A program made the position numbers and the translations under genes. DNA of 18,658 nt from a virus (lineage: Duplodnaviria; Heunggongvirae; Uroviricota; Caudoviricetes), in the IMG/VR virus record IMGVR_UViG_3300028453_000031. The stretch is one strand, 5' to 3'. This document shows positions 1 through 18,232 of the stretch, piece by piece. Position 1 is the stretch's first letter. Each line of letters begins with the position of its first letter. The notes beneath the pieces were generated by a model. The model saw only the letters and a program-made list of their open reading frames with translations. It was not told the DNA's origin and did not search any database.

Positions 1-586
1 TTTCCACCCGGCGCGCAGAAAGCATACGCAGCAGACGTTCACGGCTGAGAATTTCGCCCGGATTGGTCACAAATGCCACCAACATTTCATACTCTGCGCG
101 GGTTAGTTTAATCGGTTCGCCATCAAAACCTTTCAGGCGCGAATACACCGTCACCACCACAAACGGCAGGCAGAAGGTGATATGCGAGAACAGCAGCGAC
201 CAGAAGCAAAGCTGAATACCCAGCAGCATAAACAGCACCAGAAGCGAAATCGCCATCACAATATCTGGCGACATCATCACCACAAACAGCATTCCGCTAA
301 CGAACGGCTTACCACGAAAGCGATAACGGTACAACGCAACTGCCGTCAGTGAACCGATAAGCGTAGCAAACGTCGCCGAAAACACCGCCATCGTCAGTGA
401 ATGCTGAGCTGCCTGCAACAGACTGTCGTTGTTCATCAGCAGGCTATACCATTTGGTGGTAAAACCCTGCCAGTTGATGCCAAAGCGCGAGCTGTTGAAA
501 GAGTTCACAATCAAAATAATGATTGGGATATACAGGTACGCGTAGATAGCGGTCATAAAACCGCCGCGAAGCAGTCGACCGATCAT
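1..586 (-). CDS. potC: Host ABC transporter permease, PotC-like N-terminal region; apparently disrupted and chimeric at its 3' side
   Basis: Minus-strand ATG at 584-586 translates to MIGRLLRGGFMTAIYAYLYIPIIILIVNSFNSS..., which matches my recollection of the PotC N-terminus. As displayed, the frame hits TGA at 347-349 while PotC-like sequence continues in another frame. The last ~40 codons (1-121) encode GEPIKLTRAEYEMLVAFVTNPGEILSRERLL, an OmpR-family winged-helix segment. Confidence 0.5.
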   Translation of the reverse strand, partial: MIGRLLRGGFMTAIYAYLYIPIIILIVNSFNSSRFGINWQGFTTKWYSLLMNNDSLLQAAQHSLTMAVFSATFATLIGSLTAVALYRYRFRGKPFVSGMLFVVMMSPDIVMAISLLVLFMLLGIQLCFWSLLFSHITFCLPFVVVTVYSRLKGFDGEPIKLTRAEYEMLVAFVTNPGEILSRERLLRMLSARRVE

Positions 587-752
587 TCGAGTTCCACCTT
601 CTTATTCATAAGGCGGGGTACTTTCAGGATTTTGAATTTATTCAATTTTTTCCTTTCTCCAAAATCTCTCCAAAACTTTTCCCCAAAACAAGGCCACGCA
701 TTTTACAACACTTTTTTCCTGCGATGGTGACGGATATTCCATATAGTGTTTG
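587..752. other. Probable attL arm: AT-rich intergenic region between host gene start and integrase 3' end
   Basis: A/T tracts between the PotC-like start and the int stop; int is oriented toward it. The core sequence cannot be fixed without the other prophage end. Confidence 0.4.
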
Positions 753-1871
753 TCAAATAACCAACTTAACCCATTCCTGACCTCGGGTATCGTTATAGCG
801 ATCGGTGGTTGCCTGGACTTTATGTCCTAGTAAGGTTTTTGTATCGATACCCTGTGCACGGTACAGCCGTTCAGATAGAGAGCGTTGTTCATGAAATGTG
901 GGCGGTGTTTTTCCTGCTGGTGGAATTATTCCAGCCAGATCCCGCGCTTTGGCAAAGTAGTCGCTCAGGTTGTCTTTACTCATCGGCTTTGGTTGTTTCT
1001 GGTGCCGACTATGGATTAGATATGGACTTAATATTCTGTCTCGGCATCCATCAATAACGTCTTTTAACGTTATCCCAATGGCATCACAGCGTAGTGTAAG
1101 CGGTAACGCCAGACGCATTCCGGTTTTTCCCTGGGTGATATGCAAGTGTTCGTTCCACACATCTGAAAAACGCATGTGGCAAATGTCATCACGGCGCTGA
1201 CCAGTGACAATCGCAAGAAGCATTGCGTTACGGATAAAGTGTTTTTCCGGTGTTGCGTTGTAAATTTTTTGCCAGTCTTCCAGGGCGAGCCTGGCTCTGG
1301 TTACTTTAGGGATCGGTTTACGGGTAGCCTCCGGAGGATTCCATCCAGGAGGAACTTCCCCTGCATGTTGTGCTTCTTTATAAATATCAACCCATAATCC
1401 GCGATTTACTCTCGCTGTGCTGACCATGTCTTTATCCAGCCATTCATCCAGTATTAATGCAAAGTCTCTTACTTCCAGGTCTTTCAATGGGTGATTTCCC
1501 AGGCGGGAAACTAGGTATGCAGCCATTCGCGCCTTTTCTTTGTGGGTTGTAGCTGCAATATCTCCATTTTTCAGTCGTGAGTCCTGTATTTTCAGATATC
1601 GATCAACCCATGCTTTTAATCTGATACCCCGACGTTTTGTTGCTGATGGACTTTCATCAATTTTGCGCATGAAATATTCTGCTTCTGCTGCAGCTATTCG
1701 TTGATTAGCCGTGGAAGCGATTTTTTCTGCCTTGCCTTTGTCTGTTCCGAGTCCGTGAAATTTACCAGTCACTGGATTTTTATACTGGTAGTAAACCTTG
1801 CCAGTTCTGCGATCAAACTTTTCGTAAAGACATGCTATGTCAGTGCTGTTTTTTCGTGGCCTCGGTGACAT
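753..1871 (-). CDS. int: Tyrosine site-specific integrase (lambda Int family)
   Basis: 372-aa ORF with C-terminal catalytic motifs HEQRSLSERLY and LLGHK...DRYND, and an R-containing box (TGQRRDDI). Its start overlaps the xis stop region. Confidence 0.95.
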   Translation of the reverse strand: MSPRPRKNSTDIACLYEKFDRRTGKVYYQYKNPVTGKFHGLGTDKGKAEKIASTANQRIAAAEAEYFMRKIDESPSATKRRGIRLKAWVDRYLKIQDSRLKNGDIAATTHKEKARMAAYLVSRLGNHPLKDLEVRDFALILDEWLDKDMVSTARVNRGLWVDIYKEAQHAGEVPPGWNPPEATRKPIPKVTRARLALEDWQKIYNATPEKHFIRNAMLLAIVTGQRRDDICHMRFSDVWNEHLHITQGKTGMRLALPLTLRCDAIGITLKDVIDGCRDRILSPYLIHSRHQKQPKPMSKDNLSDYFAKARDLAGIIPPAGKTPPTFHEQRSLSERLYRAQGIDTKTLLGHKVQATTDRYNDTRGQEWVKLVI

Positions 1872-2109
1872 GAGTTAAAATCTCCTTCAGTGCGTCATCA
1901 TCGTCAGTATGAATTTCCGGCGCAATTCCTGTTTCACCAGGACCCACAAATACTGCTCGGCGATCTATCAGCCAACGCCCACGGATTTTTTGTGGCCTTG
2001 GAACGATGTATCCCAGTTTTCCGTATTTCACCAGGGTAGAGTTTGTTATTGGGAGACTGAACCGTTTAGGCTTCCACTCGTCGAGCGTTATCAGGTACTG
2101 TTCGCTCAT
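1840..2109 (-). CDS. xis: Excisionase (Xis-like)
   Basis: MSEQYLITLDEWKPKRFSLPITNSTLVKYGKLGYIVPRPQKIRGRWLIDRRAV resembles lambda Xis (YLTLQEWNARQ...PPPVKDGREYLF). ATG at 2109 has a GGAG 8 nt upstream; the 3' end overlaps the int start. Confidence 0.8.
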   Translation of the reverse strand: MSEQYLITLDEWKPKRFSLPITNSTLVKYGKLGYIVPRPQKIRGRWLIDRRAVFVGPGETGIAPEIHTDDDDALKEILTHVTEATKKQH

Positions 2110-2170
2110 GGCCATCACTCCGGAATGCGCCAGTTGCAGAATAGCAACTACAACTGGCGACGGTTGAACA

Positions 2171-4627
2171 TTAAAAATCAGCCTGACTCGGGATCAGTTT
2201 TTGCCAGATGGCTGAAACGTATTTTGCCTGGTAACGCGCATCGTGCAGGGCGTTATGGCGTTCACCTTCGAATGGAATAGTCGTTCTTGCGTCGAAATCC
2301 ATCACCAGTCCCAGAGCAACCATCGTTCTTACATCGCGATCATTGGTATAACGCCACGGGCAGGGGATCCCCTGCCGTTCATATGAACGGCGTAAAATCA
2401 CGTTGTCGAAAGTTGCACCGTTACCCCAGACCTGAACAAAAAATTCACCGGAGTTTTCGTCGATAAATTCCCGCAATTGTAACAGTGCATCATCTAACGG
2501 GATTTCATCGGTCATAATGGCAGATTGCGCTTCGCGTGATTGCTTAAGCCACCATTTAATGGTGTCCCGATCAATGACTCCGCCAGCAGTTTCCAGATCG
2601 ACAGTCTTACTAAATTCCGGTCCCATATCTCCGGTTTGCGGATCGAAAAATATTGCACCTATTGAGATAATCGGGGCATCAGGATTTTTTCCCATGGTTT
2701 CAAGGTCGATCATTAGATGGTCACACGTCCTGCTGGTGGATGTGATAACGTGATGACCGTTCACCGTAATTAAGGGATCTGCCGTCTCGTCAGTTTCACT
2801 ATCGCTGGCGTGGTCCTGAGCGCTGCCAGCATTCTCCTTGCGTGGATGTTCAGCGCCTTCCATTTTCTCCGAATCGTCTTCCTGAACTTCAACCTGGTTC
2901 TTGTCATCGAATGTTTCCTGGTATGTTGCGTCGCCCATCACCGCACCACAATCAGGGCAGTTGCCGCCACCGCTCTGACCGCAGGCGGTGCAGATCTTTT
3001 CCGGTTCTTGTTGCACTACTGGTTCAGGTTGTTTCGTTTCTGGCTCGTTTTGTTGCGTATTTGGGCTGTTTTGTTCCGCTTTCTGGTCGTTCTGTTCCGT
3101 TTCTTGCTGGTTCTGGTTCACAGAATCGCGGGTTTCAATCCCCTTCACCCATTTAGGATCATTCGGATCGCTAATCCCTTCAACAAATTCACCACGCGAT
3201 ACAGCAAGCAACTTATCGGCATCAGGCTGGCTGATACTGGCTGCCTGCATAGTTTTGTTTACTTCGTCAGCGGTGACTTTTAATTGGTTAGCGGAACTCA
3301 CCTGCGACTGAGCATCCAGCGACTGCGCGTCCTGGCAATGTTCAGTTGTATCCGGTTCCATTCTTTCAGTTGTTGCCTGTTCACCTGCCATTGCGTCAGA
3401 TGGTTGTGGTTTTTCTTTTTCTGTTTCACGCTCAGTAACCACCTCGCGGTTAATTTCTTCCAGGATATCTTTTTCCGGCGTATGCCGGGCAGCTGTGAGA
3501 GTTTCCTTGCTGGGGTTCTCGTGATCAGTTTCCGTCAAATAGGCGTTGATATACCCCTGAAGGCGTCCCGGGTAGTGATAAAATTCAGGGTGTGCGCTTC
3601 GGATAAGTGCAAAAATAGCGGCGCGGGAATAGTCCAGAATACCCGGGGTTGCACGAAGTTCTGCGGACCATTCTTTGAACGGACTTTCTTTTTTCAGGAC
3701 GACTTCTTTTGCGCGACGATAAATGCTGCCCGGAATTTCATAAATATTAAAATCCATCGGAAGTGTGGCTGCTGCAATCTCCACATCCAGTGTGTCGAGG
3801 GTGTGTACTAAATTCGGATTGCGATCGGTTTTGTTCCCTCCACCGGCATTAGCACCGGAAGTCGTGCGGGTGATGCGTGAAACACGATTTCCTTTCATCC
3901 ACTCTTTTGTCAGCAGACCGCGATCGGTGTAGTCAGCGCCCAGGTATGCTTCGAAAAAAGCAGTCATCAGCCCCAGGTCTGAATTACCAGGATTAGGGAA
4001 AACCTTGTCAGTGTCACGAACCAGTTTGTGGAGATCGCGAATTTCCAGCGGTTCGAGTTGCGCAGCTTTATTTGAGATGGCCAGCGCGGTAACGGCGGGA
4101 AGTTTTTCATCCTGTGCGTTATGTAATGCACGCAGTTCGCCCCGCGAAACGTGTGTGATCGGTTTTTCGCTGCCGTGCTGTGCCAGCCATTGAACAGGCA
4201 GAATCTGACCTGAAACCGGCAGGAGCATATTCTCCTCAATCTCAGTCATGTCTTCGCTGTTGACGTTGGTATTGTCAGTGCTGGCTGGTTTGTCCTGAAC
4301 AGAGGATGAGGGCGCGATAGGTGAGGGCGCGATAAGTACCATTGTGATACCATCTTCCCCGCCTTTTTCGTATCGGTTGCAGAATTCGGTATCAAACACG
4401 CCTTCCGGAGGAAGGTCATTCACAACGGGTAAATGGACGCGAACAGGTTTTTTAAAATCCTCTTCGTCAAATCCAGCATCGTCCATTGCGACAACACCGC
4501 GTGATATTGCAACCGATAATTTTTTTGCTGTGCGCCAGTAAAAACCGCCTTTAATCCCAAGACGTTTTCTGACTTTGTCATTTTTGGCTTCGTAATATAG
4601 TGCAATTTCTTCTTTATCAGCGCTCAT
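2171..4627 (-). CDS. Large early protein with C-terminal DnaQ-like (DEDDh) 3'-5' exonuclease domain
   Basis: 818-aa ORF. C-terminal motifs: Exo I MIDLETMG, Exo II WGNGATFDNVIL, Exo III HNALHDARY. Central acidic/Gln-rich low-complexity region with CTACG...CPDCG zinc-ribbon-like pairs. GAGG 8 nt upstream of ATG. Confidence 0.8.
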   Translation of the reverse strand: MSADKEEIALYYEAKNDKVRKRLGIKGGFYWRTAKKLSVAISRGVVAMDDAGFDEEDFKKPVRVHLPVVNDLPPEGVFDTEFCNRYEKGGEDGITMVLIAPSPIAPSSSVQDKPASTDNTNVNSEDMTEIEENMLLPVSGQILPVQWLAQHGSEKPITHVSRGELRALHNAQDEKLPAVTALAISNKAAQLEPLEIRDLHKLVRDTDKVFPNPGNSDLGLMTAFFEAYLGADYTDRGLLTKEWMKGNRVSRITRTTSGANAGGGNKTDRNPNLVHTLDTLDVEIAAATLPMDFNIYEIPGSIYRRAKEVVLKKESPFKEWSAELRATPGILDYSRAAIFALIRSAHPEFYHYPGRLQGYINAYLTETDHENPSKETLTAARHTPEKDILEEINREVVTERETEKEKPQPSDAMAGEQATTERMEPDTTEHCQDAQSLDAQSQVSSANQLKVTADEVNKTMQAASISQPDADKLLAVSRGEFVEGISDPNDPKWVKGIETRDSVNQNQQETEQNDQKAEQNSPNTQQNEPETKQPEPVVQQEPEKICTACGQSGGGNCPDCGAVMGDATYQETFDDKNQVEVQEDDSEKMEGAEHPRKENAGSAQDHASDSETDETADPLITVNGHHVITSTSRTCDHLMIDLETMGKNPDAPIISIGAIFFDPQTGDMGPEFSKTVDLETAGGVIDRDTIKWWLKQSREAQSAIMTDEIPLDDALLQLREFIDENSGEFFVQVWGNGATFDNVILRRSYERQGIPCPWRYTNDRDVRTMVALGLVMDFDARTTIPFEGERHNALHDARYQAKYVSAIWQKLIPSQADF

Positions 4628-4717
4628 TGATAAACCTCATAACCATTTTTAGGGTGAACAAGTCCCTGCCATTGCTGGCATATAAAAATGAAACCGGATA
4701 TTTATTACGGTGCTGGT

Positions 4718-4909
4718 TTAAAGCCCTGCCGGGACTTCGTTATTATCCATGCGAATAACTTTATCTACCGGATAACAGTTACCGGGAATTTTCTGTTCAT
4801 CTGCGGCAGCCATGCATTCTTCCATTGAGTCACGTATATCAACAATAAGATCAAGTGGTTCGCCGGTATTAAGAAAAACTGTCAGAACGAGTGCGAATGC
4901 TGTATTCAT
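4718..4909 (-). CDS. Small hypothetical early protein (63 aa) with hydrophobic N-terminus
   Basis: MNTAFALVLTVFLNTGEPLDL...; start is coupled by an ATGA overlap to the stop of the upstream small gene. The ORF track's longer version (4718..4963) uses an upstream start I consider less likely. Confidence 0.5.
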   Translation of the reverse strand: MNTAFALVLTVFLNTGEPLDLIVDIRDSMEECMAAADEQKIPGNCYPVDKVIRMDNNEVPAGL

Positions 4910-5094
4910 TGCCAGTATCCTTTTTGCATCAGACGTAAACGGGCCAGCATTGAAACAATGCATATTTGATTTAATAACTCCCGTTCGTGTTTTCTCTTAT
5001 TAATGGCATCTTCAGTAAATGCAGGGTTACTGATACTGACACCAATTTCAAAACAACCTTCAGACGTATTAACGTTTGGTAATAACGTTTCCAT
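4906..5094 (-). CDS. Small hypothetical early protein (62 aa)
   Basis: ORF METLLPNVNTSEGCFEIG... with a GAGGA Shine-Dalgarno ~7 nt upstream of the ATG. Confidence 0.55.
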   Translation of the reverse strand: METLLPNVNTSEGCFEIGVSISNPAFTEDAINKRKHERELLNQICIVSMLARLRLMQKGYWQ

Positions 5095-5270
5095 TATCGC
5101 GTCCTCAACAATGAATTTTGTGATGCGGTGCCTGGTGCCTCCAGATGACGTTAACCAGTTAACAATTAACGCCGGATTGTTAGTTGATGTCTGTTACGGA
5201 AGTAAAAGACCGCTTGTTTTAACTGTTCCGCGTGCGCATAGCCGCATTCACCGCATCACAAAATTCACTT

Positions 5271-5297
5271 TAAAAAGGGCGGATATCCATTTCCGCC
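5271..5297 (-). terminator. Rho-independent terminator candidate for leftward early transcription (tL-like)
   Basis: Inverted repeat GGCGGA / TCCGCC (5278-5283 and 5292-5297) with an 8-nt loop; on the minus strand it is followed by a U-run (plus-strand A-run 5272-5276). Confidence 0.5.
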
Positions 5298-5617
5298 GAA
5301 TCACCAGAAAAGTGATAACAGAGGTTGTTGTGGCTGGGGTGTCACTTAAGCGTATGGTCAACCTGACAACCCGGTGTCCTCAATGGGGGAAGGAATAACC
5401 CCGCCATACTTACCGCCGCGCCATTTCGCGGATTGCCACAACCGGAAGCGCACGGTCGAATTAAATTTAACGACAAAGTACAGAGAGACGAACTTCGCCG
5501 AGCGCTTTCGTGTTGTGTGCCTGCTTTTAACCACGTCAGGTGAGGTGGACCTGTTATTCCCCAACAACAAGGATCTTGTTAATCTGGATATCCACAACAA
5601 CAATAAGAGTATTGAAT

Positions 5618-5797
5618 GTGATCGCTGAATTAACGGCAGCAATGACGGCTATTCGTGAAACCGCTCAGATTGCAAAACTAATGAACGAGGCAAAAACTCA
5701 AGCTGAAGTAAATGCGGCTATTGGTGAACTGAACTCAAAGCTTGCATCTATTCAGCGCGAATGCGTGTCTCTCGTTGAGCTGGTGGGCACTTATTAA
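5618..5797 (+). CDS. Small coiled-coil-like ORF on the plus strand, ending at an in-frame TAA
   Basis: Frame encodes ...VIAELTAAMTAIRETAQIAKLMNEAKTQAEVNAAIGELNSKLASIQRECVSLVELVGTY*. Start is uncertain (GTG 5618 with weak AAGAG, or ATG 5645). The same frame stays open after the stop through 6133. Confidence 0.35.
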   Translation: MIAELTAAMTAIRETAQIAKLMNEAKTQAEVNAAIGELNSKLASIQRECVSLVELVGTY

Positions 5798-5917
5798 GAA
5801 ATAAATGCTTCTCTCAAAGCTAAAATTGCAGAATTTGAAAACTTTGAGGCTCAGACGGAAGGTTATATCCTTAACCAACTTGAGTCGGGAACTTTTGTGT
5901 ACTCGAAGGAGGTAACC

Positions 5918-6133
5918 GTGAACGGCGGCAGCATAATCATGCATCTTTGTCCAAAATGTTTTGGACAAAATATAGTATCGATACTTCAACCATTCCCGGT
6001 TAGAGAATATGAGTTTTTTCATAAAAGCAGGTGCCTATACTGTGAAAATCAGTTTATTATGAATAAAAATCCGGATTATGTATCGCCTCCATCTATTGAG
6101 AAGTTGGCCAGAAAACTGAACGGCAATCTGTAG
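5918..6133 (+). CDS. Small zinc-ribbon protein (CxxC...CxxC) on the plus strand
   Basis: Strong Shine-Dalgarno AAGGAGG at 5906-5912, 5 nt before GTG 5918. Product VNGGSIIMHLCPKCFGQN...RCLYCENQF... has two CxxC pairs. Confidence 0.5.
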   Translation: MNGGSIIMHLCPKCFGQNIVSILQPFPVREYEFFHKSRCLYCENQFIMNKNPDYVSPPSIEKLARKLNGNL

Positions 6134-6246
6134 ATTGTTACTGTTATGGATATCCAGATTGTTAAAGAGCATGCCGGATGCTTGCTTGTGTCCGGCGCGT
6201 GTGCACCAGTTCTCCCCGTGGAGGATTCCTTAACTACCAGACTTCA

Positions 6247-6480
6247 TTAGTTAGAGTTTCTTGCTAACCAGCGATGCGCGCCAGCTGCGGTTTTAAACGT
6301 TTTACTTTTGGTATACGTCATCGCGGTGAAGGTGCCGTCCTGGTTAGGGAACACACCGCATACCAGAGATTCGTTGTTACCAAGATTGAGCGTATCCATG
6401 TTGACCTCATTTCCCCTTAACGCCGGGGGAGCGGAACAAAAACCTGCTGCATAGTTATTAATGTTGAACCCTGCCGTCAT
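6247..6480 (-). CDS. Hypothetical protein, first gene of the leftward (pL-like) operon
   Basis: 77-aa ORF with GAGG ~9 nt upstream of the ATG, immediately downstream of the left operator pair. Not Arg-rich, so not obviously N-like. Confidence 0.5.
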   Translation of the reverse strand: MTAGFNINNYAAGFCSAPPALRGNEVNMDTLNLGNNESLVCGVFPNQDGTFTAMTYTKSKTFKTAAGAHRWLARNSN

Positions 6481-6585
6481 GTTCTTACGCCTCAGGCTGG
6501 CTACTTAACCCCTGACCACTGCCGGGTAACTCGAAGTATTGCCCTGCGTTCTGTGGGGCGGGGTGGGTTGGTATGAAAAGAAGGA

Positions 6586-6621
6586 TACCCATAGGTATTT
6601 AAAAAGTAAATACCCATGGGT
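6586..6621. promoter_or_regulatory. Left operator pair (OL-like): two copies of ATACCCAYRGGT
   Basis: ATACCCATAGGTAT at 6586-6599 and ATACCCATGGGTA at 6609-6621 (TACCCATGGGTA is a perfect palindrome). The same motif recurs on the other side of the repressor gene. Confidence 0.5.
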
Positions 6622-6666
6622 AACTTTTTTTACGGTGTCTTAACTGGTGACTGGTTGTTTGGTGAG

Positions 6667-7086
6667 CTATGATGCGTTTTGCGCTTTCTTTTTACGGATT
6701 TCTTCGTAGATCATATTGTAATACTGTTTTTTCTCTTCAAGAGTTTTTAATAAGTTATCCGCTTCACTTTCTGGCAGTTCGTCTAAGAGATCTAAAAAAA
6801 TACGTTGTCGTGGCGTTAGAACCCTTGTTTCATAACTGGAGGCTGTGTTCGTTGATGATGAAACGATACCATCCATCCATCCCCGGGGTAACCCAAAGGA
6901 CTCTTCGATAATCTCCACCATATCATCAGCGATCCGTTTTTTTCCCTTTTTCCCCTCTGGGTACAACATTCTTGATACATAAGAAGGCTCGCGCCCGATC
7001 TTTCTGGCCACGTTAACCGCTTTACCATCGCATTTCTCATCACGAATTTTGATGAGTTGCTGTCGTCTAAATTCATATTTGTCCAT
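6667..7086 (-). CDS. Prophage repressor, RacR-like, HTH, without a LexA-type peptidase domain
   Basis: 139-aa ORF divergent from the cro-like gene, with an HTH-like segment AVNVARKIGREPSYVSRMLY and no S24 peptidase motifs. No obvious Shine-Dalgarno, so possibly leaderless like lambda cI. Confidence 0.8.
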   Translation of the reverse strand: MDKYEFRRQQLIKIRDEKCDGKAVNVARKIGREPSYVSRMLYPEGKKGKKRIADDMVEIIEESFGLPRGWMDGIVSSSTNTASSYETRVLTPRQRIFLDLLDELPESEADNLLKTLEEKKQYYNMIYEEIRKKKAQNAS

Positions 7087-7122
7087 AGGTAAATAATAGA
7101 TGCGATTACTGCAAGGTAAACA

Positions 7123-7158
7123 ACCTGTGGGTATTGACTTTTGTTTACCTGCGGGTAT
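7123..7158. promoter_or_regulatory. Right operator pair (OR-like) in the divergent promoter region
   Basis: ACCTGTGGGTAT at 7123-7134 and ACCTGCGGGTAT at 7147-7158 are reverse complements of the ATACCCAYRGGT motif seen at 6586-6621, within direct repeats TTGTTTACCTG. Confidence 0.55.
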
Positions 7159-7186
7159 TCTTTGCTGTGTTTACTAAGGAGTAGCT

Positions 7187-7468
7187 ATGGAAGAATTAAG
7201 AATATTTCTCAATTCTCTTTCGTCAGATGAACAGCGTATGTTTGCATGCGAGTGCGGTACCAGCATCGGTTATCTAAGAAAGGCATTGAGTAAAGGTCAA
7301 GTGTTAGGGGCATCGTTATGTGTCCTTATTGAGCGAGCCAGTAATGGTGAAGTTACACGTCAGCAACTAAGGCCTTTTGATTGGATGAATATTTGGCCCG
7401 AGCTGGAAGATACCAAAACGTTAACACAACCACTTTCTAGGAGCTTGATTCATGAAAATCAAGCATGA
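7187..7468 (+). CDS. Cro/CI-type HTH regulator, YdaS-like
   Basis: 93-aa ORF with AAGGAG Shine-Dalgarno, divergent from the repressor. HTH-like CGTSIGYLRKALSKGQ. Position and size match Rac ydaS. Confidence 0.75.
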   Translation: MEELRIFLNSLSSDEQRMFACECGTSIGYLRKALSKGQVLGASLCVLIERASNGEVTRQQLRPFDWMNIWPELEDTKTLTQPLSRSLIHENQA

Positions 7469-7877
7469 ACACATCTGTATGGCGATGAATGCCTGGGCGC
7501 GTCCTGATGGCGAAAAAGTTCCAGTAGCTGCAATAACCCAGGCTTATTTTGAGTTGGGTATGACGTTTCCTGAACTGTATGACGACAGCCATCCGGAAGC
7601 CCTGGCTCGCAATACCCAGAAAATTTTCCGCTGGGTAGAGAAGGACACCCCTGATGCTGTTGAAAAAATTCAGGCGTTGTTACCGGCGATCGAAAAGGCG
7701 ATGCCGCCTTTGCTGGTGGCCCGTATGCGCAGTCACAGCTCTGAATATTACCGTGAGATCGTCGAACGGAGGGATCGACTGGTGAAGGATGTCGATGATT
7801 TTGTTGCGTCAGCGGTTGTTTTGTATGACCAGATGAATCGCGGCGGCCCGGCAGGGAATGCTGTGGTGATGCACTAA
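7452..7877 (+). CDS. YdaT-like protein
   Basis: 141-aa ORF overlapping the YdaS-like 3' end, AGGAGC before the ATG. Order and size match Rac ydaS-ydaT. Confidence 0.7.
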   Translation: MKIKHEHICMAMNAWARPDGEKVPVAAITQAYFELGMTFPELYDDSHPEALARNTQKIFRWVEKDTPDAVEKIQALLPAIEKAMPPLLVARMRSHSSEYYREIVERRDRLVKDVDDFVASAVVLYDQMNRGGPAGNAVVMH

Positions 7878-7899
7878 AAGCACGGTGTTCGGGGGTTTT

Positions 7900-8862
7900 A
7901 TGAGCAGCAAGCTTCATGGTCTTGTCTGGGAAGGGTGCGCCTTCACCGGCATGATCTTATCCAGGGTGGCAGTTATGGCCCGTCTTGCAGACTACAGCAA
8001 TGACGAGGGCGTGTCATGGCCTGCCATTGAAACTATCCGGCGTCAGATCGGTGCAAGAAGTGAATCTACCGTGAAATCTGCTATTGCAGAACTGGCGAAA
8101 GAGGGCTGGCTGACGAAGGAAGAGCGTAAGGTCGGTGGGCGTAACGTAAGCAATATCTATCGGCTTAATGTGGAAAAACTCGAAGCAGCTGCAGCTGCGG
8201 CCCGTGAGGCATATAAACCGAAAAGAAAAATTAGCCCGGCAAAAAATGACCCGTTAACAGTTGACCCGTCAAATATTGACCCCTCAACTGTTGACCCGTC
8301 AAATTTTGATGGATCAACTGTTGATAAAAAACTGCCGATTAGGGGGGCGATGATTGACCCCGATCCGTCAGTATTAAAACCTGATCCGTCAGATAAAAGA
8401 TCTTCTTGTCCGGACGTTTCGCAACCGGACCCGCAGACGGCTGAACAGGATTTTTTAACCCGACACCCTGACGCGGTTGTGTTCAGTGCGAAAAAACGCC
8501 AGTGGGGAAGTCAGGAAGATTTGGCGTGCGCACAGTGGATCTGGGGACGAATCGTGAGTCTTTACGAGCAGGCGGCCAGCGATGATGGCGAGATCACGAG
8601 ACCGAAAGAACCCAACTGGACAGCATGGGCCAATGATGTGCGCACAATGCGGATGCTGGATGGCAGAACTCACAGACAAATTTGTGAAATGTTTGGGCGT
8701 GTCCAGCGGGATTCGTTCTGGGTAAAAAACATCATGAGTCCGGCAAAACTCCGGGAAAAATGGGATGAACTGGTTATCCGCCTGGGGCGTTCGCCCGCGC
8801 AGCGTTGCGTGAATCACATTTCTGAACCGGACACTGAAATACCGCCGGGATTCAGGGGGTGA
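7900..8862 (+). CDS. Replication initiator (O-like / YdaU-like) with N-terminal winged helix
   Basis: N-terminal HTH region (ARLADYSNDEGVSWPAIETIRRQIGARSESTVKSAIAELAKEGWL); internal tandem iterons; immediately upstream of the DnaC-like gene. ATG 7900 preferred over the track's GTG 7885 (G-rich SD-like stretch upstream). Confidence 0.8.
   Translation: MSSKLHGLVWEGCAFTGMILSRVAVMARLADYSNDEGVSWPAIETIRRQIGARSESTVKSAIAELAKEGWLTKEERKVGGRNVSNIYRLNVEKLEAAAAAAREAYKPKRKISPAKNDPLTVDPSNIDPSTVDPSNFDGSTVDKKLPIRGAMIDPDPSVLKPDPSDKRSSCPDVSQPDPQTAEQDFLTRHPDAVVFSAKKRQWGSQEDLACAQWIWGRIVSLYEQAASDDGEITRPKEPNWTAWANDVRTMRMLDGRTHRQICEMFGRVQRDSFWVKNIMSPAKLREKWDELVIRLGRSPAQRCVNHISEPDTEIPPGFRG
8246..8320. repeat. Iterons (candidate ori): five tandem ~15-bp repeats inside the initiator gene
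   Basis: Units TGACCCGTTAACAGT / TGACCCGTCAAATAT / TGACCCCTCAACTGT / TGACCCGTCAAATTT / TGATGGATCAACTGT with 15-bp period, encoding DPLTVDPSNIDPSTVDPSNFDGSTVD. This is the lambda O-type arrangement. Confidence 0.65.
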
Positions 8863-8868
8863 CGTGTC

Positions 8869-9606
8869 ATGAAAAACATTGCGGCAGTTGGGGTTCTTGA
8901 ACGTATTCGCAGAATTGCACCACAGGGGGAGGTTCCACCGTACCGTACGGTGGAGGAGTGGCGGGAATGGCAGCTTGCTGAAGGGCGTAAGCGCAGCGAG
9001 GAGGTTAATCGCCTGAATCATCAGACGCGGGTTGAAAAAATCATTAACCGCTCCGGTATCCAGCCGCTTCACTGGAAGTGTACGTTCGGTAACTACCGGG
9101 TGCAGAACGATGGTCAGCGCCATGCCCTGAGTCAGGCGAAATCCATTGCGGCAGAGCTGGAAGGCGGCTGTACGAATTTTGTTTTCAGTGGCCGACCTGG
9201 CACAGGGAAAAACCACCCGGCGGCGATAGGCAATCGGCTGATGGAGAAGGGGCGCAGCGTAATTATCATCACTGTGTCTGATGTCATGAGTGTGTCGCAC
9301 GACAGTTACGACAACGGCAAATCAGGTGAAAAATTTTTACAGGAGCTTTGCGAGGTGGATTTGCTGGTCCTGGATGAAATTGGCATGCAGCGGGATACGC
9401 GCAATGAGCAAGTCACGCTTAATCAGATTGTTGACCGCAGAACGTCATCATTACGCAGTGTAGGGATGCTGACGAACCTGAATCATGTCGCAATGAATAC
9501 GCTTGTAGGCGAAAGGGCAATGGACCGCATGTCCATGAACGGTGGTCGCTGGGTGACTTTTGACTGGGAGAGCTGGCGTCCGAACGTCAGCCAGCACAGG
9601 AACTGA
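8869..9606 (+). CDS. DnaC-like helicase loader (AAA+ ATPase)
   Basis: SGRPGTGKNHPAAIGN (Walker A as in E. coli DnaC GKPGTGKNH), LLVLDEIGMQ (Walker B), and a C-terminal region resembling DnaC (NQIVDRR...GMLTNLN). Start is coupled to the initiator stop. Confidence 0.85.
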   Translation: MKNIAAVGVLERIRRIAPQGEVPPYRTVEEWREWQLAEGRKRSEEVNRLNHQTRVEKIINRSGIQPLHWKCTFGNYRVQNDGQRHALSQAKSIAAELEGGCTNFVFSGRPGTGKNHPAAIGNRLMEKGRSVIIITVSDVMSVSHDSYDNGKSGEKFLQELCEVDLLVLDEIGMQRDTRNEQVTLNQIVDRRTSSLRSVGMLTNLNHVAMNTLVGERAMDRMSMNGGRWVTFDWESWRPNVSQHRN

Positions 9607-9634
9607 GATGTAATTTTTGTCGGAGGAAATTTTA

Positions 9635-10405
9635 ATGGAAACCGTTTTTGACGCACTGAAAGCAATGGGAAAAGCCACATCGGTAGAACTGGCTGCGCGA
9701 CTTGATATCAGTCGTGAAGAGGTTCTCAACGAGCTGTGGGAACTCAAAAGAAATGGCGTCGTTGATAAAACTGGTCACACCTGGTTTCTGGCTGGCGAAG
9801 GTGAATCCCGGGTAACCGAAGAGCAGCCAGCAAAATCTGAAGCACCGGATGTGCTGACCGGGGAGGTCGAACAAAAAGTTACCGCAGACATGATGATTGA
9901 GTTTATCGGTCAGGAGGGGGCTAAAACGTGTGAGGAACTGGCGGGTAAGTTCGGTGTTAGCACTCGCAAGGTTGCTTCCACGCTGGCGGTAGTAACCGCA
10001 ACGGGGCGGTTGGCACGCGTTAATCAGAACGGTAAATTTCGTTACTGCATGCCGGGCGATAATTTACCAGTAGAGCCGAAAGCCGCGCCGGTAACGGAAA
10101 ATGATGGTAAGGCATTTCCTCAGTCAGCAGGTGTTGCGTTACCAGTCCGGGAAGCTGCAACACAGGAAGAAATTAAAACAGAAACTGTGGCGGACATTGT
10201 GCAGTCGTTGCCATCGTTCACCGAAACGCAAACGGATGACCTGGTTTTACCATCGCTGCATATGGCAAACCGCGAACTGCGTCGGGCGAAAAGTCATGTC
10301 CAGAAGTGGGAGCGTGTCTGCGCCGCGTTGCGGGAGCTGAACAAGCACCGGGATATTGTTCGACAGATTGTCGATTCCTCCAGTCGTATTGTGTCGGAAA
10401 AGTGA
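9635..10405 (+). CDS. Hypothetical protein with two winged-helix-like repeats
   Basis: GGAGG 8 nt before ATG 9635 (track start TTG 9617 less likely). Two similar HTH-like segments: [26 protein letters not shown] and [30 protein letters not shown]. Confidence 0.7.
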
Positions 10406-10420
10406 TTGCCGGAGGCGCTT

Positions 10421-10843
10421 ATGGCAAAAGTATTTACACAGGAAGAGCGGGAAAAAATTAAAGGGCAGGTTGTTGAGCTAGTACGCCAGAGTGGGCGCGA
10501 GACGTTACGGCAACTGGAAGCCAAGACAGGTGCGACAAGATATCTGATGAGCGTTCTCGCAAGAGAGCTGGTTGCCAGTGGTGATGTATACAACTCTGGC
10601 TACGGGTTATTTCCCTCTGAACAGGCTCGTAAGGACTGGCAAAACGCCCGCAAAAAACTATCGAGGGCAAAGATGAAGAAATCGGTTGCAGTTGATCCGG
10701 ACCTTATCTGGTCATTACCTGACGGAGAAATACGTCGTTATGACAGGCACCAAAACATAATTTGCTGTGAGTGCCGGAAGAGTGAAGTTATGCAGCGTGT
10801 ACTGGCTTTCTATCAGGGTAATTTTCAGGAGGCGGTACTGTGA
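10421..10843 (+). CDS. Hypothetical protein
   Basis: GGAGG 5 nt before ATG 10421; 140-aa ORF tightly packed with its neighbours. Confidence 0.65.
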   Translation: MAKVFTQEEREKIKGQVVELVRQSGRETLRQLEAKTGATRYLMSVLARELVASGDVYNSGYGLFPSEQARKDWQNARKKLSRAKMKKSVAVDPDLIWSLPDGEIRRYDRHQNIICCECRKSEVMQRVLAFYQGNFQEAVL

Positions 10844-10900
10844 GTGAAATTAGCTATCAGGCTTCAATTGTCGCTGGCATTCGCATCAAAGGAGAGGAGC

Positions 10901-11257
10901 ATGGAAATAAAACCAGAAGATGAGTTAAGCAATATTGTTTTATTTCCGGTAAAAGAGGATGACCCACGTAATCAGGTTAATTTTCTTTATGAGCCATCGG
11001 AAAGACCATACTGCCATCACGCCTCTGTCCGGGTTGACGAAAAAGAGCGCCAGGTCCGATGCAAAATTTGCGGTGCGGTTGTGGAGCCATTTGACTGGAT
11101 GCTCTCAGTGGCGAAAAGAGAAACCAGACTGGCAGATGATGTAAGGCTATTGCGCCAGGAGGAACAGGAAAGGCGAAAAAATATAGAAAAGCTAATTCAG
11201 ATTGAGCGTAACGCGAAAGCGCGGATACGCAGGGCGACAAAATTTAGCCCCGAATAA
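10901..11257 (+). CDS. Hypothetical zinc-ribbon protein
   Basis: GGAGAGGAG before ATG 10901 (track GTG 10844 is in frame but has a weaker context). CHH...CKICG motif. Confidence 0.6.
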   Translation: MEIKPEDELSNIVLFPVKEDDPRNQVNFLYEPSERPYCHHASVRVDEKERQVRCKICGAVVEPFDWMLSVAKRETRLADDVRLLRQEEQERRKNIEKLIQIERNAKARIRRATKFSPE

Positions 11258-11422
11258 TTAACATTATTATCGGAAATAAAATCCTTAACCGGAGGGATTT
11301 CTGCACCCTCAGAACATCAGGAGGCCACCAGAAATGGCGGTAATGAAAAATTAACCAGAGAGCAATTAATCAAAGAAGCCAAATTAAAAATAGCGGTTGC
11401 GAAATGTCACCCCAATTCAGAG

Positions 11423-11689
11423 ATGGCTAGGGTAGAGGGCGAGCTATTCAAAATTGCACTGGCATCGCTGGAAGCAGAACCGGTGGCATATCAGTATCGC
11501 CTGTGGGATGCGGAATATGATGAATGGGGGGAATGGGAAGATTGCGGAGAATGCGCTTACGAAGGATTTGTTGAGGAAGAGAAACTCCAGGGGGCAGCTG
11601 TTCAGACCCGTAAGCTATACGCCACACCGCCAGTGCCGGTAGTGCCGGAATTTGAAACATGGTTTAACAGCCAGGAGTCAGGGAGATAA
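11423..11689 (+). CDS. Hypothetical acidic protein
   Basis: 88-aa ORF in the same orientation and operon context; weak RBS. Confidence 0.5.
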   Translation: MARVEGELFKIALASLEAEPVAYQYRLWDAEYDEWGEWEDCGECAYEGFVEEEKLQGAAVQTRKLYATPPVPVVPEFETWFNSQESGR

Positions 11690-11692
11690 ATC

Positions 11693-12193
11693 ATGATTAA
11701 TCGTACTAAACTGGAGCACATCCTCGAATATGCCAGGCAGCAGAGGCATATTGGTCAGCATTGTAAAATTCCAGCAGGAGATATGGTTGAAATCGTGGAG
11801 ATTGCCATGTGTAAGACTGGTAACTCTCAGGTAATTCCAGATGAGGTGCTGTCAGCAATTATGAAGGTAGTCAGGATTCGTACCGACTTTGCCGATTTTG
11901 ACGGTGACAGGCGAGGTATCGGTGATTGTCTGGATGAGTCTGAGCAAGAGCTTATCGTTACCATTAACAAATATGCCAGTCAGTTGGTAGTGGAACCGGT
12001 AGTACCTGATGAAGAACGGGAACAGACAGTCACGCCGCCAACACCTGGTAACCAGATTAACGAATTAACCATGTTGGTTAAGCGATTAGCCAGTTCGCTA
12101 AAAAGCGTCAATAAATCAAGCAAGCTACCTGATAAAGCGATGGAATATCTGAAGCAGAACGGACTGGTTGGTGTGGAGGATATTTTACGATGA
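11693..12193 (+). CDS. Hypothetical protein
   Basis: GGAG-rich Shine-Dalgarno before ATG 11693; 166-aa ORF; stop overlaps the next small ORF start (ATGA). Confidence 0.65.
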   Translation: MINRTKLEHILEYARQQRHIGQHCKIPAGDMVEIVEIAMCKTGNSQVIPDEVLSAIMKVVRIRTDFADFDGDRRGIGDCLDESEQELIVTINKYASQLVVEPVVPDEEREQTVTPPTPGNQINELTMLVKRLASSLKSVNKSSKLPDKAMEYLKQNGLVGVEDILR

Positions 12194-12273
12194 CCTGGCC
12201 TGAAGCATTTGCAATTGTAGGCGTTGCTATGGCTATCGCTTTTTTAGTATATGTTATTTGTCGGTGGGGGTAA
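12190..12273 (+). CDS. Small hydrophobic peptide (27 aa), single predicted TM helix
   Basis: MTWPEAFAIVGVAMAIAFLVYVICRWG; ATG overlaps the upstream stop (ATGA coupling). Confidence 0.4.
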   Translation: MTWPEAFAIVGVAMAIAFLVYVICRWG

Positions 12274-12307
12274 AACGTTCGCCGGGATTCACACCAAAGG
12301 AGGGAAT

Positions 12308-12412
12308 ATGTCGGATGATATTTCACTGGCAATGGAAGGCGCTCTGGCTGTTATTGCTGTTGTTATTGTTTACTGCCTGGTTGTGTTTTTGATGGATCGG
12401 CTGGGGAACTGA
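12308..12412 (+). CDS. Small hydrophobic peptide (34 aa), single predicted TM helix
   Basis: MSDDISLAMEGALAVIAVVIVYCLVVFLMDRLGN; strong AAGGAGGG Shine-Dalgarno at 12297-12304. Confidence 0.45.
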   Translation: MSDDISLAMEGALAVIAVVIVYCLVVFLMDRLGN

Positions 12413-12422
12413 ATTCATTGCG

Positions 12423-12656
12423 ATATGGGAATTCCCATATTGGGCAAAAACGGTTTGCTGTAAAGCGAGAGTTAAGTAGAATTGCTGCGGGTGCTTGAGG
12501 CTGTCTGCCTCGGGCATGCCGCCGTAAGGCAGACAGAGAAAAGCCCCAGTTAACATAACGCGTCCTGCAAGACGCTTAACATTAATCTGAGGCCCAATCT
12601 ATGTCTCACAAATGTAGGTTAGCCTCTTACGTGCCGAAGGCAAGGAGAAGCAGGCT
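12423..12656 (+). promoter_or_regulatory. hok mRNA leader region with strong secondary structure; expected location of the antisense (sok-like) RNA
   Basis: 18-bp perfect palindrome ATATGGGAATTCCCATAT (12423-12440); 10-bp perfect stem CTGTCTGCCT / AGGCAGACAG (12501-12510 and 12527-12536); short leader ORF 12601-12660 ending in ATGA at the hok start. Confidence 0.45.
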
Positions 12657-12812
12657 ATGAAGCAGCAAAAGGCGACGTTAATCGCCCTGATCGTCATCTG
12701 TTTAACCGTCATAGTGACGGCACTGGTAACGAGGAAAGACCTCTGCGAGGTACGAATCCGAACCGGCCAGACGGAGGTCGCTGTTTTCACAGTCTACGAA
12801 CCTGAGGAGTAA
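12657..12812 (+). CDS. hok: Hok/Gef family type I toxin
   Basis: 51-aa product MKQQKATLIALIVICLTVIVTALVTRKDLCEVRIRTGQTEVAVFTVYEPEE matches the Hok family pattern (TM helix then TRK.LCE.R.R.G..EVA....YE). AAGGAG 9 nt upstream. Confidence 0.85.
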   Translation: MKQQKATLIALIVICLTVIVTALVTRKDLCEVRIRTGQTEVAVFTVYEPEE

Positions 12813-14316: not shown

Positions 14317-14553
14317 ATGACCGAACGCATAGAATTTGTTTTGCCTTACCCGCCAACGGTGAACACTTACTGGCGACGTCGTGACCTGGACAACATTCTG
14401 AAAGCGCCACTGGATGCGCTGACGCATGCAGGACTACTTATCGACGACGAGCAGTTTGATGAAATTAATATTGTGCGCGGTCTGCCTGTTCCTGGCGGAC
14501 GGCTTGGTGTGAAAATTTACGAAATAACGCATGGCGGGCAGGCAAAAGAATGA
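14317..14553 (+). CDS. rusA: RusA-family Holliday junction resolvase with apparent internal in-frame deletion (78 aa versus ~120 aa)
   Basis: N-terminus LPYPPTVNTYW and C-terminal part RRRDLDNILKAPLDALTHAGLLIDDEQ...GGRLGVKIYEI align to RusA as I recall it; about 40 central residues are absent. ATGA coupling at both ends. Confidence 0.65.
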   Translation: MTERIEFVLPYPPTVNTYWRRRDLDNILKAPLDALTHAGLLIDDEQFDEINIVRGLPVPGGRLGVKIYEITHGGQAKE

Positions 14554-15371
14554 AACTGGAAGATTTACCAAAATACTATTCCCCAAAATCACCGGGTCTG
14601 ACGGATGCATCGGCCTCAACGTCAAAAGATGCGCTGAGTATCACTGATGTGATGGCAGCGCAGGGCATGACACAGAATCGGGCTGAGATGGGGTTTTCTG
14701 CGTTCCTTGGGAAAATGGGCATTAGTATGAATGACAGAGAGCGGGCAACAGAATTGCTGACAGAATATGCACTCAGTCGGTGTGATCGCGTGGCGGCGTT
14801 AAGAAAACTCCCGGCAGAAATAAAACCGGCAGTGATGCGTATTATGGCTTCGTATGCGTTTGAAGATTATGCCCGTAGCGCGGCGAGCAAAAAACAGTGC
14901 CCCTGCTGTCACGGAAAAAAATTTATTGAAAGCGAGGTTTTTACAAACAAGATCCAGTATCCGGATGGTAAGCCGCCAGTGTGGGCAAAGTGCACAAAAG
15001 GCGTGTATCCGTCTTACTGGGAGGAATGGAAAAAAGTCAGGGAGGTGGTAAAAGTTGCCTGTCCGGAGTGTGGAGGGAAGGGAGAGGTATCCACTGCCTG
15101 TAAAGATTGTCGTGGGCGCGGTGTTGCCATTCATCGTGAAGAGTCGGAAAAACAGGGTGTGCCGGTTTTCAGAAACTGTCAGCGTTGTGGTGGGCGTGGC
15201 TATGAAAGATTACCTTCAACGGAGGCATTTAATGCCATATGTAATGTAACCGATGCCATATCTCTTGATACATGGAAAAAAACAGTTAAACGTTTTTACG
15301 ATACGCTGGTGGTGCAGTTTGATATTGAAGAAGCATGGGCAGAACAACAACTGAAAAAGGTGACCAGATAG
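14550..15371 (+). CDS. Late-gene antiterminator Q-like protein (multi-CxxC zinc binding)
   Basis: Position after rusA and before the late promoter and tRNAs. SPKSP...TDVMAAQGM N-terminal pattern and several CxxC pairs. Family assignment is from memory of Q-type proteins. Confidence 0.65.
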   Translation: MKLEDLPKYYSPKSPGLTDASASTSKDALSITDVMAAQGMTQNRAEMGFSAFLGKMGISMNDRERATELLTEYALSRCDRVAALRKLPAEIKPAVMRIMASYAFEDYARSAASKKQCPCCHGKKFIESEVFTNKIQYPDGKPPVWAKCTKGVYPSYWEEWKKVREVVKVACPECGGKGEVSTACKDCRGRGVAIHREESEKQGVPVFRNCQRCGGRGYERLPSTEAFNAICNVTDAISLDTWKKTVKRFYDTLVVQFDIEEAWAEQQLKKVTR

Positions 15372-15404: not shown

Positions 15405-15450
15405 TGCCCTAACGATGGGCGTTTTATGCCTGACGTTAGAAGATTTTTAC

Positions 15451-15476
15451 ACCCGTCGCCAGGCGGGTTTTTTTAT
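15451..15476 (+). terminator. Candidate tR'-like terminator in the late leader
   Basis: ACCCG...CGGGT stem (5 bp, 8-nt loop) followed by TTTTTTTA. Confidence 0.45.
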
Positions 15477-15596
15477 GACTGAAATCACGCCAGTACATAA
15501 AATGTGCAGGTGGTTATTAATACCGGTCTTTCAGCTTGCTGGCTTTTTTGACAAGAGTTATTGGTGTGTCACGTTAACCGGAAAAGGGAAAAAGAC

Positions 15597-15794
15597 ATGC
15601 TGAAACAGCAGGATATGACCGAAACCGCCAGAGTGGTGTTTAATGAATTAAGCGTCACCGAACCGGCGACAGTCGGGGAGATTGCGCAGAATACTTACCT
15701 TTCACGCGAACGCTGCCAGTTAATACTGACCCAGCTTGTTATGGCGGGTCTGGCAGACTATCAGTTCGGTTGTTACAGACGCCTTCAGTCATGA
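15597..15794 (+). CDS. Small hypothetical protein (65 aa), possible winged helix
   Basis: MLKQQDMTETARVVFNELSVTEPATVGEIAQNTYLSRERCQLILTQLVMAGLADYQF...; first ORF after the late leader. Confidence 0.5.
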   Translation: MLKQQDMTETARVVFNELSVTEPATVGEIAQNTYLSRERCQLILTQLVMAGLADYQFGCYRRLQS

Positions 15795-15944: not shown

Positions 15945-17003
15945 ATGTTTAATACTGTAAAAATATCCAGTTGTGAGTTGATCAACGCTGACTGCCTGGA
16001 ATTTATCCGGTCGTTACCCGAAAATTCTGTTGACCTGATAGTCACGGACCCGCCGTCCTTTAAAGTGAAGCCTGAGGGCTGGGATAACCAGTGGAAGGGC
16101 GACGATGATTACCTGAAATGGCTGGACCAGTGTCTGGCGCAGTTCTGGCGGGTGCTGAAACCTGCCGGAAGTCTTTACCTGTTCTGTGGCCATCGCCTGG
16201 CATCTGACATTGAAATCATGATGCGAGAACGCTTCAGTGTGCTGAACCATATTATCTGGGCGAAGCCGTCCGGACGCTGGAACGGGTGCAACAAGGAAAG
16301 CCTGAGGGCGTATTTCCCCGCCACAGAGCGCATTCTGTTCGCGGAACATTATCAGGGGCCGTATCGTCCGAAAGATGCCGGGTATGAGGCGAAGGGCAGG
16401 GCACTGAAACAGCATGTGATGACACCGCTGATTGCTTACTTTCGTGATGCGCGTGCTGCCCTGGGGATAACGGCAAAACAGATTGCTGATGCCACAGGAA
16501 AGAAAAACATGGTGTCGCACTGGTTCAGTGCCAGTCAGTGGCAGTTACCGAACGAAAGCGATTATCTGAAATTACAGGTGCTGTTTGCCCGGGTGGCAGA
16601 AGAGAAGCATCAGCGGGGTGAACTGGAAAAGCCCCACCACCAGCTGCTGGAGACGTATACTTCACTGAACCGGCAGTATGCGGAACTGCAGAGTGAATAT
16701 AAGCATCTGCGGCGGTATTTTGGCGTGACGGCGCAGATGCCGTACACGGATGTGTGGACGCATAAACCGGTGCAGTACTATCCCGGGAAACATCCGTGCG
16801 AAAAACCGGCAGAAATGCTGCAGCAGATAATCAGCGCGAGCAGTCGTCCGGGTGACCTGGTTGCAGATTTTTTCATGGGGTCGGGTTCGACAGTCAAAGC
16901 CGCGATGGCGCTGGGGCGGCGTGCAACTGGCGTTGAGCTGGAGACTGAACGTTTTGAGCAGACGGTCAGAGAAGTTCAGGATTTAGTCAGTCAGAACGGA
17001 TGA
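15945..17003 (+). CDS. Orphan DNA methyltransferase, beta-class amino-MTase (N6-adenine or N4-cytosine)
   Basis: Motif IV-like LIVTDPPSF near the N-terminus and motif I FFMGSGST near the C-terminus (beta-class order). No adjacent restriction endonuclease gene. Confidence 0.85.
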   Translation: MFNTVKISSCELINADCLEFIRSLPENSVDLIVTDPPSFKVKPEGWDNQWKGDDDYLKWLDQCLAQFWRVLKPAGSLYLFCGHRLASDIEIMMRERFSVLNHIIWAKPSGRWNGCNKESLRAYFPATERILFAEHYQGPYRPKDAGYEAKGRALKQHVMTPLIAYFRDARAALGITAKQIADATGKKNMVSHWFSASQWQLPNESDYLKLQVLFARVAEEKHQRGELEKPHHQLLETYTSLNRQYAELQSEYKHLRRYFGVTAQMPYTDVWTHKPVQYYPGKHPCEKPAEMLQQIISASSRPGDLVADFFMGSGSTVKAAMALGRRATGVELETERFEQTVREVQDLVSQNG

Positions 17004-17043: not shown

Positions 17044-17119
17044 GGCCCTTTAGCTCAGTGGTGAGAGCGAGCGACTCATAATCGCCAGGTCGCTGGTTCA
17101 AATCCAGCAAGGGCCACCA
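17044..17119 (+). tRNA. ileZ: tRNA-Ile (anticodon CAU, lysidine type), ileX/ileZ-like
   Basis: 76 nt, 7-bp acceptor stem GGCCCTT/AAGGGCC, anticodon loop CTCATAA, T-loop TTCAAAT, 3' CCA. Near-identical to E. coli tRNA-Ile2 as I recall it. Confidence 0.85.
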
Positions 17120-17128
17120 TATCACATA

Positions 17129-17205
17129 CCGCCATTAGCTCATCGGGATAGAGCGCCAGCCTTCGAAGCTGGCTGCGCGGGGTTCGAGTCCTCGATGGCG
17201 GTCCA
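17129..17205 (+). tRNA. tRNA-Arg (anticodon UCG)
   Basis: 77 nt, acceptor CCGCCAT/ATGGCGG, D-arm GCTC/GAGC, anticodon stem CCAGC/GCTGG with loop CTTCGAA, T-arm CGGGG-TTCGAGT-CCTCG, 3' CCA. Resembles the rare-codon Arg tRNA (argO-like) of Stx phages. Confidence 0.8.
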
Positions 17206-17483: not shown

Positions 17484-17912
17484 ATGTATTGCCGTGCTGT
17501 ACCGGTTCTTGTTTTGATATTAGCCAGTCTGACAACTGGCTGCACAAAAGATGTATCGACAAATAATCATGATGCTTCTCTGTATCACTCAGATAAATTA
17601 ATAAAGTCGCAAAATTTGAGCTCATCGGAACGTACCCCTGATGCCAGTGAAGAAATCCGGCAGTATGCCATTCAGGTCAGGAAAGCCATAGAAGAACAGT
17701 TAAAGGATGCGAGTAAGTATTCAGGAAAAGAGTGTTCACTGAGAATGTATATGGCCCCGAATGGTCTTCTGCTACAGGTTAAAAGAGAAAGCGGTGATCC
17801 CGATTTATGTCGTGAAGCGATGAATGCAGTAAAGAATGCTGATATACCATCACCACCGTCTTCAGGAGTATATAAAGCATTTAGAAATGGCGTGCTGGAT
17901 TTTAAACTCTGA
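17484..17912 (+). CDS. Lipoprotein with TolA C-terminal domain (domain III)-like mature region; moron candidate
   Basis: Signal peptide with lipobox LTTGC. Residues ~57-142 (YAIQVRKAIEEQLKDASKYSGKECSLRMYMAPNGLLLQVKRESGDPDLCREAMNAVKNADIPSPPSSGVYKAFRNGVLDFKL) align with the TolA C-terminal domain, including both cysteines. GGAG 8 nt upstream; markedly AT-rich gene and flanks. Confidence 0.8.
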   Translation: MYCRAVPVLVLILASLTTGCTKDVSTNNHDASLYHSDKLIKSQNLSSSERTPDASEEIRQYAIQVRKAIEEQLKDASKYSGKECSLRMYMAPNGLLLQVKRESGDPDLCREAMNAVKNADIPSPPSSGVYKAFRNGVLDFKL

Positions 17913-17942: not shown

Positions 17943-18202
17943 GATTTTGGGGCGCTGGAAAGATATTGTGCTGTGAAGTGTTAAATCCCTCACAATTCAG
18001 TAAGTTGACAGTTGCCTGTCAGACTGAGCATTTGTTAAAAAAATTTCGCATGGTGAATCCCCCTGTGCGGAGGGGCGACTGGTGAACGGTATGATCTCTT
18101 TGATGATCGTAAGCGAGAATACGCGGGTTTGGTGTCACCGGGCTGAACTCACCGGGAGGCACCCGGCACCATGCTCATGGTGATACAGAAATGCGGCTTC
18201 AG

Positions 18203-18228: not shown

Positions 18229-18232
18229 GACA

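Follow-up and report, generated by a model that had tools for sequence, protein, structure and literature searches.

Is the joint between a permease gene and a response-regulator gene at one end of a prophage-bearing sequence a feature of a bacterial chromosome, or the trace of a chimeric molecule? The question is raised by the left end of IMG/VR virus record IMGVR_UViG_3300028453_000031, an 18,658-nt stretch of caudoviricete DNA that was analysed whole and is called the window below. Here a minus-strand reading frame passes from potC to torR a few hundred nucleotides outside an integrated phage. An earlier note on this DNA, made from its letters alone, had described the gene as chimeric and frame-disrupted.

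Content of the left-end reading frame

We translated the minus strand of positions 1-600 and found the frame that begins at ATG 586-584 to be open from 586 to position 2. Open reading frames running off the window go unlisted in the ORF track, which is why this one was missing from it and accounts for the caveat on that point in the earlier note. The PotC-like N-terminus that had been read from this ATG was borne out, as 154 of its 155 residues match residues 1-155 of K-12 PotC, with G127C as the sole difference. The TGA placed by the note at 347-349 is CTG in that frame, and its proposed 1-nt deletion near 355-361, with PotC continuing in another frame, is contradicted by the open frame and by alignments of 127-604 that run without gaps against both K-12 potC-potB and a lysogen. 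Relative to intact potC there was neither an indel nor a premature stop.

Only part of PotC is present. The full protein has ~264 aa, a cytoplasmic EAA loop and six transmembrane helices; the alignment to K-12 PotC ends at residue 155, directly ahead of ...VRMLEAAKDLG, and the potC part lacks the EAA loop and the last two helices. Pfam BPD_transp_1 was correspondingly partial in the ORF, scoring 16.3 bits, under its cut-off of 26.4. After ...VYSRLKGFD the product reads GEPIKLTRAEYEMLVAFVTNPGEILSRERLLRMLSARRVE. Residues 155-195 of the ORF are identical to residues 152-192 of K-12 TorR (41/41), so that the TorR winged helix named in the note was correct, and at the DNA level positions 1-126 match torR in 18 complete E. 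coli genomes (126/126 nt). Pfam Trans_reg_C, the winged helix of TorR and other OmpR-family response regulators, was found at ORF residues 156-190 (28.5 bits, cut-off 26.2), the domain being cut by the window edge. No receiver domain with a phospho-acceptor Asp was found in the ORF upstream of the joint, where the sequence is that of PotC.

We give practically no credence to a frameshifted potC pseudogene, or to a natural single-gene family that pairs a permease and a winged helix. No stop interrupts the frame and the alignment with potC shows no indel, the halves match two different E. coli genes at 99-100% identity, and none of 3176 hits in a 5.8-billion-cluster protein set was a homologue spanning both halves. 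Nor is 1-586 colinear with any single gene, since colinearity with potC covers 127-586 only. Of the earlier description the frame disruption has thus fallen: the sequence is chimeric and its frame is intact. A plus-strand ORF of 109 aa at 401-730 lies antisense to potC and spans attL; it is almost certainly no gene.

Table 1 Features at the left end of the window, with the evidence for each.
Feature	Position	Strand	Evidence or remark
torR 3'-proximal fragment, TorR 152-192, winged-helix DNA-binding domain	1..126	-	DNA and protein identity, Pfam; exits window
Joint microhomology TCAA / CATCAA	121..126		Three-way alignment, allele survey, chance estimate
potC 5' part, codons 1-155, ATG 586-584, colinear with intact potC	127..586	-	Translation, alignments
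C>A (G>T in potC sense strand), PotC G127C, strain marker	208		0/5358 complete E. coli genomes, 0/14 fetched loci; in same-strain contig L055
C>A, synonymous, private to window, 116 nt from joint	242		C in every other sequence, 5358 complete E. coli genomes and L055 included
potB last codons (…NKKVELE), stop TGA 585-583 overlapping potC ATG, left at attL	583..604	-	Translation, alignment
attL core CCTTCTTATTCA of potB-site prophage	593..604		Common to attL (window), attB (K-12) and attR (strain M18)
Phage arm of attL, core to int stop codon	605..752		Lysogens only; 1400/5426 complete genomes match through 752
Lambda-type tyrosine integrase	753..1871	-	Pfam Arm-DNA-bind_1 and Phage_integrase
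Excisionase	1840..2118	-	Pfam Exc 23.1 bits, cut-off 23; annotated excisionase in relatives

The prophage and its attachment site

The 12-nt attL core sits within the last potB codons, directly between host and phage DNA and beside int. The host/phage boundary falls at 604/605, with K-12 similarity lost past 604, and at attR phage DNA is joined straight to potB. An exoVIII-like gene of 818 aa follows the excisionase. Of 5426 complete E. coli genomes, 1400 have int beside a 264-aa potC that is intact (match from 116/123 to 752), and proteins identical to the integrase adjoin an intact 264-aa potC in 8/8 cases among the matches listed. The potB locus is documented as a prophage site of STEC, named 'PP_potB' in genome studies of STEC O157:H7 and O145:H28 (PMC9997748, PMC7067040). 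Both the prophage and its site were already known, and the prophage is in its ordinary place.

Roughly 470-477 nt of ordinary host DNA separate the core from the potC-torR joint, and the joint sequence is unlike the core. The earlier note was therefore right that a direct join of a permease 5' part to a response-regulator 3' end is unexplained by simple integration at attB. Its suggestion of recombination at a secondary site, with integrase-mediated insertion or excision at an attachment site in torR, would fit a joint <500 nt from the prophage end and the imperfect match (11/12) between the torR and potC sites. We consider it highly improbable, because an intact attL occupies the usual potB site and has the core of attB and attR, the intervening host DNA is ordinary, and the prophage occupies the same documented place in those 1400 complete genomes. 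Chromosomal genes lie on both sides of the joint, with no core-like sequence, and a secondary-site junction was rejected on these grounds and by the alignment of att sites.

We also rejected a phage-borne copy of the potC 5' part brought into torR, or integrated into potC, by the phage. Two INPHARED entries, ON470612.1 and ON470619.1, do match the window from 116 on and might be taken as phages that carry potC; both are prophage predictions whose flanks hold host genes (cobB, ycfZ, ymfA, potD, potC). Prophage-free K-12 is colinear with the window up to 604, the lysogen MFDS1022581 holds a single potC copy (its two matching places being potC and torR), and attR has phage DNA directly against potB. 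This origin has next to no probability. An inversion between prophages that would bring torR beside potC was worked through on paper and rejected, as the orientations do not yield the joint.

Several further observations concern the prophage itself. In three other genomes (loci L018, L021 and L022) the potC flank at 245-601 differs at ~13 sites while the prophage part is nearly identical, and these are therefore the same phage in different host backgrounds or cases of a recombined flank. Between Q (14550-15371) and a DNA methyltransferase gene (15945-17003), positions 15448-15791 show ~23 differences within 340 nt against three relatives (L028, L043 and L044) that are otherwise 99.8% identical, a pattern suggestive of a patch of recombination. 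An ORF of 65 aa inside the patch (15600-15794) is extremely widespread, occurring in 14,113 blocks, Stx phages included. Downstream of Q and the methylase, 17044-17205 holds a tRNA pair, one with anticodon CAT (annotated as tRNA-Ile in relatives) and one tRNA-Arg(TCG), in the spot where the stx genes lie in Stx phages; the window contains no stx genes. Colinearity with strain M18 stops exactly at 17205. Beyond it lies a module common in STEC prophages, with a TolA-like ORF (17484-17912) followed by the sRNA STnc100 (18019-18231).

Anatomy and uniqueness of the joint

A three-way alignment placed the switch from potC to torR at 126/127. Both parents have TCAA there (123-126), and the closest relative's potC allele, …TTCGCACATCAA followed by AACC, lengthens the overlap to CATCAA (121-126). 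An allele survey of 14 loci extended the likeness of the torR and potC sites to 11/12 with one 1-nt gap, TTCGC(A)CATCAA. For joints drawn at random from this part of the K-12 genome, overlaps of at least 4 nt have a probability of 0.018 and overlaps of at least 6 nt one of 0.002. Microhomology beyond chance indicates a homology-guided process and fits polymerase template switching; it speaks against blunt ligation and against arbitrary concatenation. The two coding parts share one frame, for which the chance is 1 in 3. Neither an IS element nor an att site lies at the joint, and literature on potC together with torR yielded irrelevant word matches only. The 126-nt torR stub equals k-1 at k = 127, a possible de Bruijn-graph signature if position 1 is the end of the contig.

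The joint was not found in 5426 complete E. coli genomes, in PLSDB or in INPHARED, a search for the exact junction in IMG/VR, among the GTDB species representatives and in JGI metagenomes gave no match, and a PotC-TorR fusion was absent among the 3176 protein hits. All contigs read that encode an identical integrase or exonuclease have an intact 264-aa potC followed by potD, and relatives that share the window's integrase, exoVIII, DUF968, 65-aa or 137-aa ORF have normal flanks only. The 78-aa ORF had no match on record. The closest relative, an isolate contig (GCA_028611705.1), is identical to the window over 123-10627 except at 208, 242 and 5511, and its potC is intact. The torR allele of the window is rare (100% identity in only 18 complete genomes) and occurs in genomes that overlap those with the best potC matches. 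Both halves therefore come from one lineage, which fits an intragenomic chimera.

Distance and essential genes between torR and potC

Every reference has torR and potC on one strand, 123.8 kb apart in MFDS1022581 and ~125 kb apart in K-12, and the orientation of the pair is that of a deletion. The interval contains murJ, rne, plsX, fabD, fabG, acpP, tmk, holB and lolCDE, which the Keio collection reportedly shows to be essential to E. coli K-12; potC and torR themselves are dispensable. With about ten essential genes in the interval, a simple deletion that lost ~124-125 kb would not be viable, so that the pair has the orientation expected of a simple deletion and fails on viability. A real variant would require the block to have been relocated or duplicated, and with it at least two further rare events.

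Same-strain contigs and the quality of contig ends

One metagenome contig, L055 (JGI 3300022692 Ga0251769_1000263, 12,522 bp), matches the window over 165-12680 save at 167, 174, 242 and 12636, and this four-position difference identifies it as the same strain. Its end falls near position 160 of the window, 34 nt short of the joint. Its last 15 nt hold 5 mismatches, and these end bases are mismatched sequence and not torR. L055 carries A208, the reference C at 242 and an extra A at 12636.

These positions bear on how the window's left end is read. A208 is probably a real strain SNP, a missense change in a transmembrane segment. Its presence in L055 weakens the argument from a cluster of two private G>T changes at the joint, since only A242 is then private; A242 is a probable base error. 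At 12636, inside a sok hit (12489-12662), the window has a private 1-nt deletion (AAA to AA) where all relatives, same-strain contigs included, have AAA, and the choice lies between an error in base calling and a mutation of hok/sok.

A further difference is shared with L055. At 11348, between the features at 10844-11257 and 11423-11689, the window has an 8-nt deletion (GGCTGAAT) against six relatives, flanked by AAT repeats. With it a 115-aa ORF loses its ATG and an ORF of 88 aa remains, on record on only 5 contigs, all of them metagenomic (JGI 3300022692, 3300037678 and 3300037694; ENA ERZ27247011). The 88-aa and 295-aa ORFs led to the same-strain metagenome contigs, and the deletion with its 88-aa ORF is a handy marker for the strain or phage. 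Unaligned or error-rich ends were also seen on two other same-strain contigs (JGI 3300037678, 3300037694), at 1-518 of L047 and at the right end of L048, which suggests that low-coverage, error-prone ends are common among contigs of this phage.

Taken from sequence, the L055 end, A242 and the deletion at 12636 point to a left end of the window that had about single-read support. The joint locus would likewise have had roughly single-read support in the L055 assembly.

Origin of the joint

Among the three causes offered by the earlier note, the alignment of att sites disposed of secondary-site recombination, and rearrangement and assembly chimera both stand as candidates. At a probability of about 0.7, judged from the sequence, we take the joint to be a one-off chimeric molecule or read at the low-coverage end of a contig that is probably metagenomic, and not a feature of the chromosome. 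This reading is favoured because about ten essential genes would otherwise be lost, because the joint is unique and because it lies at a putative low-coverage, error-prone contig end. The chimera would have arisen when a polymerase switched templates, either in a dying cell or as the library was amplified, and a torR-ending strand was primed on potC via ...TTCGCCATCAA. The chimeric fragment may have been the sole read reaching past ~160-250, with which the assembler then extended the contig, and the in-frame PotC-TorR product would be accidental and functionless. Four points weigh against a chimera: assemblers usually clip short, low-coverage chimeric tips, the two genes are fused in frame, microhomology-mediated joints also form in vivo, and the end of L055 near the joint could be the sign of a real discontinuity in the strain.

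A heritable structural variant that joined potC codon 155 to torR codon 152, through replication template switching or an MMEJ-type event, is unlikely, though it deserves serious weight. The essential 124-kb block would then be kept elsewhere, translocated or as a second copy in a merodiploid. Such a variant would account for the same-strand deletion orientation with its 4-6 nt of microhomology, for the single lineage of the two halves and for a joint between two dispensable genes. It would also account for the break of an independent same-strain contig 34 nt away, for which the chance is ~1% as a rough estimate unless both assemblies share reads; identical or sister read sets behind the two assemblies would lead one to expect the coincidence. 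What makes the variant doubtful is the essential interval with the further rare events it entails, the absence of the joint from every other sequence of the collections searched, the intact potC-potD of all close relatives and the mismatched bases, in place of torR, at the L055 end.

A much fuller version, which we regard as very unlikely, is a real rearrangement beside an active potB prophage that relocated or duplicated the 124-kb block and made an in-frame, membrane-tethered TorR DNA-binding protein. If it were true, four N-terminal PotC transmembrane helices would tether the TorR winged helix on the cytoplasmic face, without a receiver domain, giving a product like the membrane-anchored regulators of the ToxR/CadC type. 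A joint that proved real would rank among the rare documented cases in which microhomology mediated a large rearrangement next to a prophage, yet in a single strain.

Under the favoured chimeric molecule or read, the locus matters mainly for quality control. Read literally, the window would point to a novel permease-regulator fusion, a secondary phage attachment site within torR or the deletion of 124 kb, and none of the three is supported. The prophage contig of a thinly covered genome can gain a short foreign tail, and an apparent frameshift can be a misreading.

Comparison with known systems

In its phage part the window does not differ from the PP_potB lambdoid prophages. It has the same left end of integrase, excisionase and exoVIII, the same core at the 3' end of potB and the same position of int beside potC; the host flank is abnormal only past potC codon 155. 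Specialised-transducing lambdoid phages, which arise by aberrant excision, likewise carry host DNA near attL together with the int end. In those phages, however, the host flank meets DNA of the prophage's other end, whereas in the window it meets torR, which belongs to the chromosome and lies 124 kb off.

Microhomology-mediated illegitimate recombination in E. coli resembles the joint in the direct orientation of the two sites, in the 4-6 nt of microhomology and in the lack of an IS element or att site. The deletion implied here covers essential genes and so would be no simple viable deletion, unlike the deletion junctions formed in that way. Template-switch chimeric reads and misjoins at contig ends are tips that assemblers usually prune; in other respects they would be like the joint, in that two non-adjacent loci of one genome are linked through a short microhomology in one assembly, with a private base adjoining (242) and an error-laden end on the contig of the same strain.
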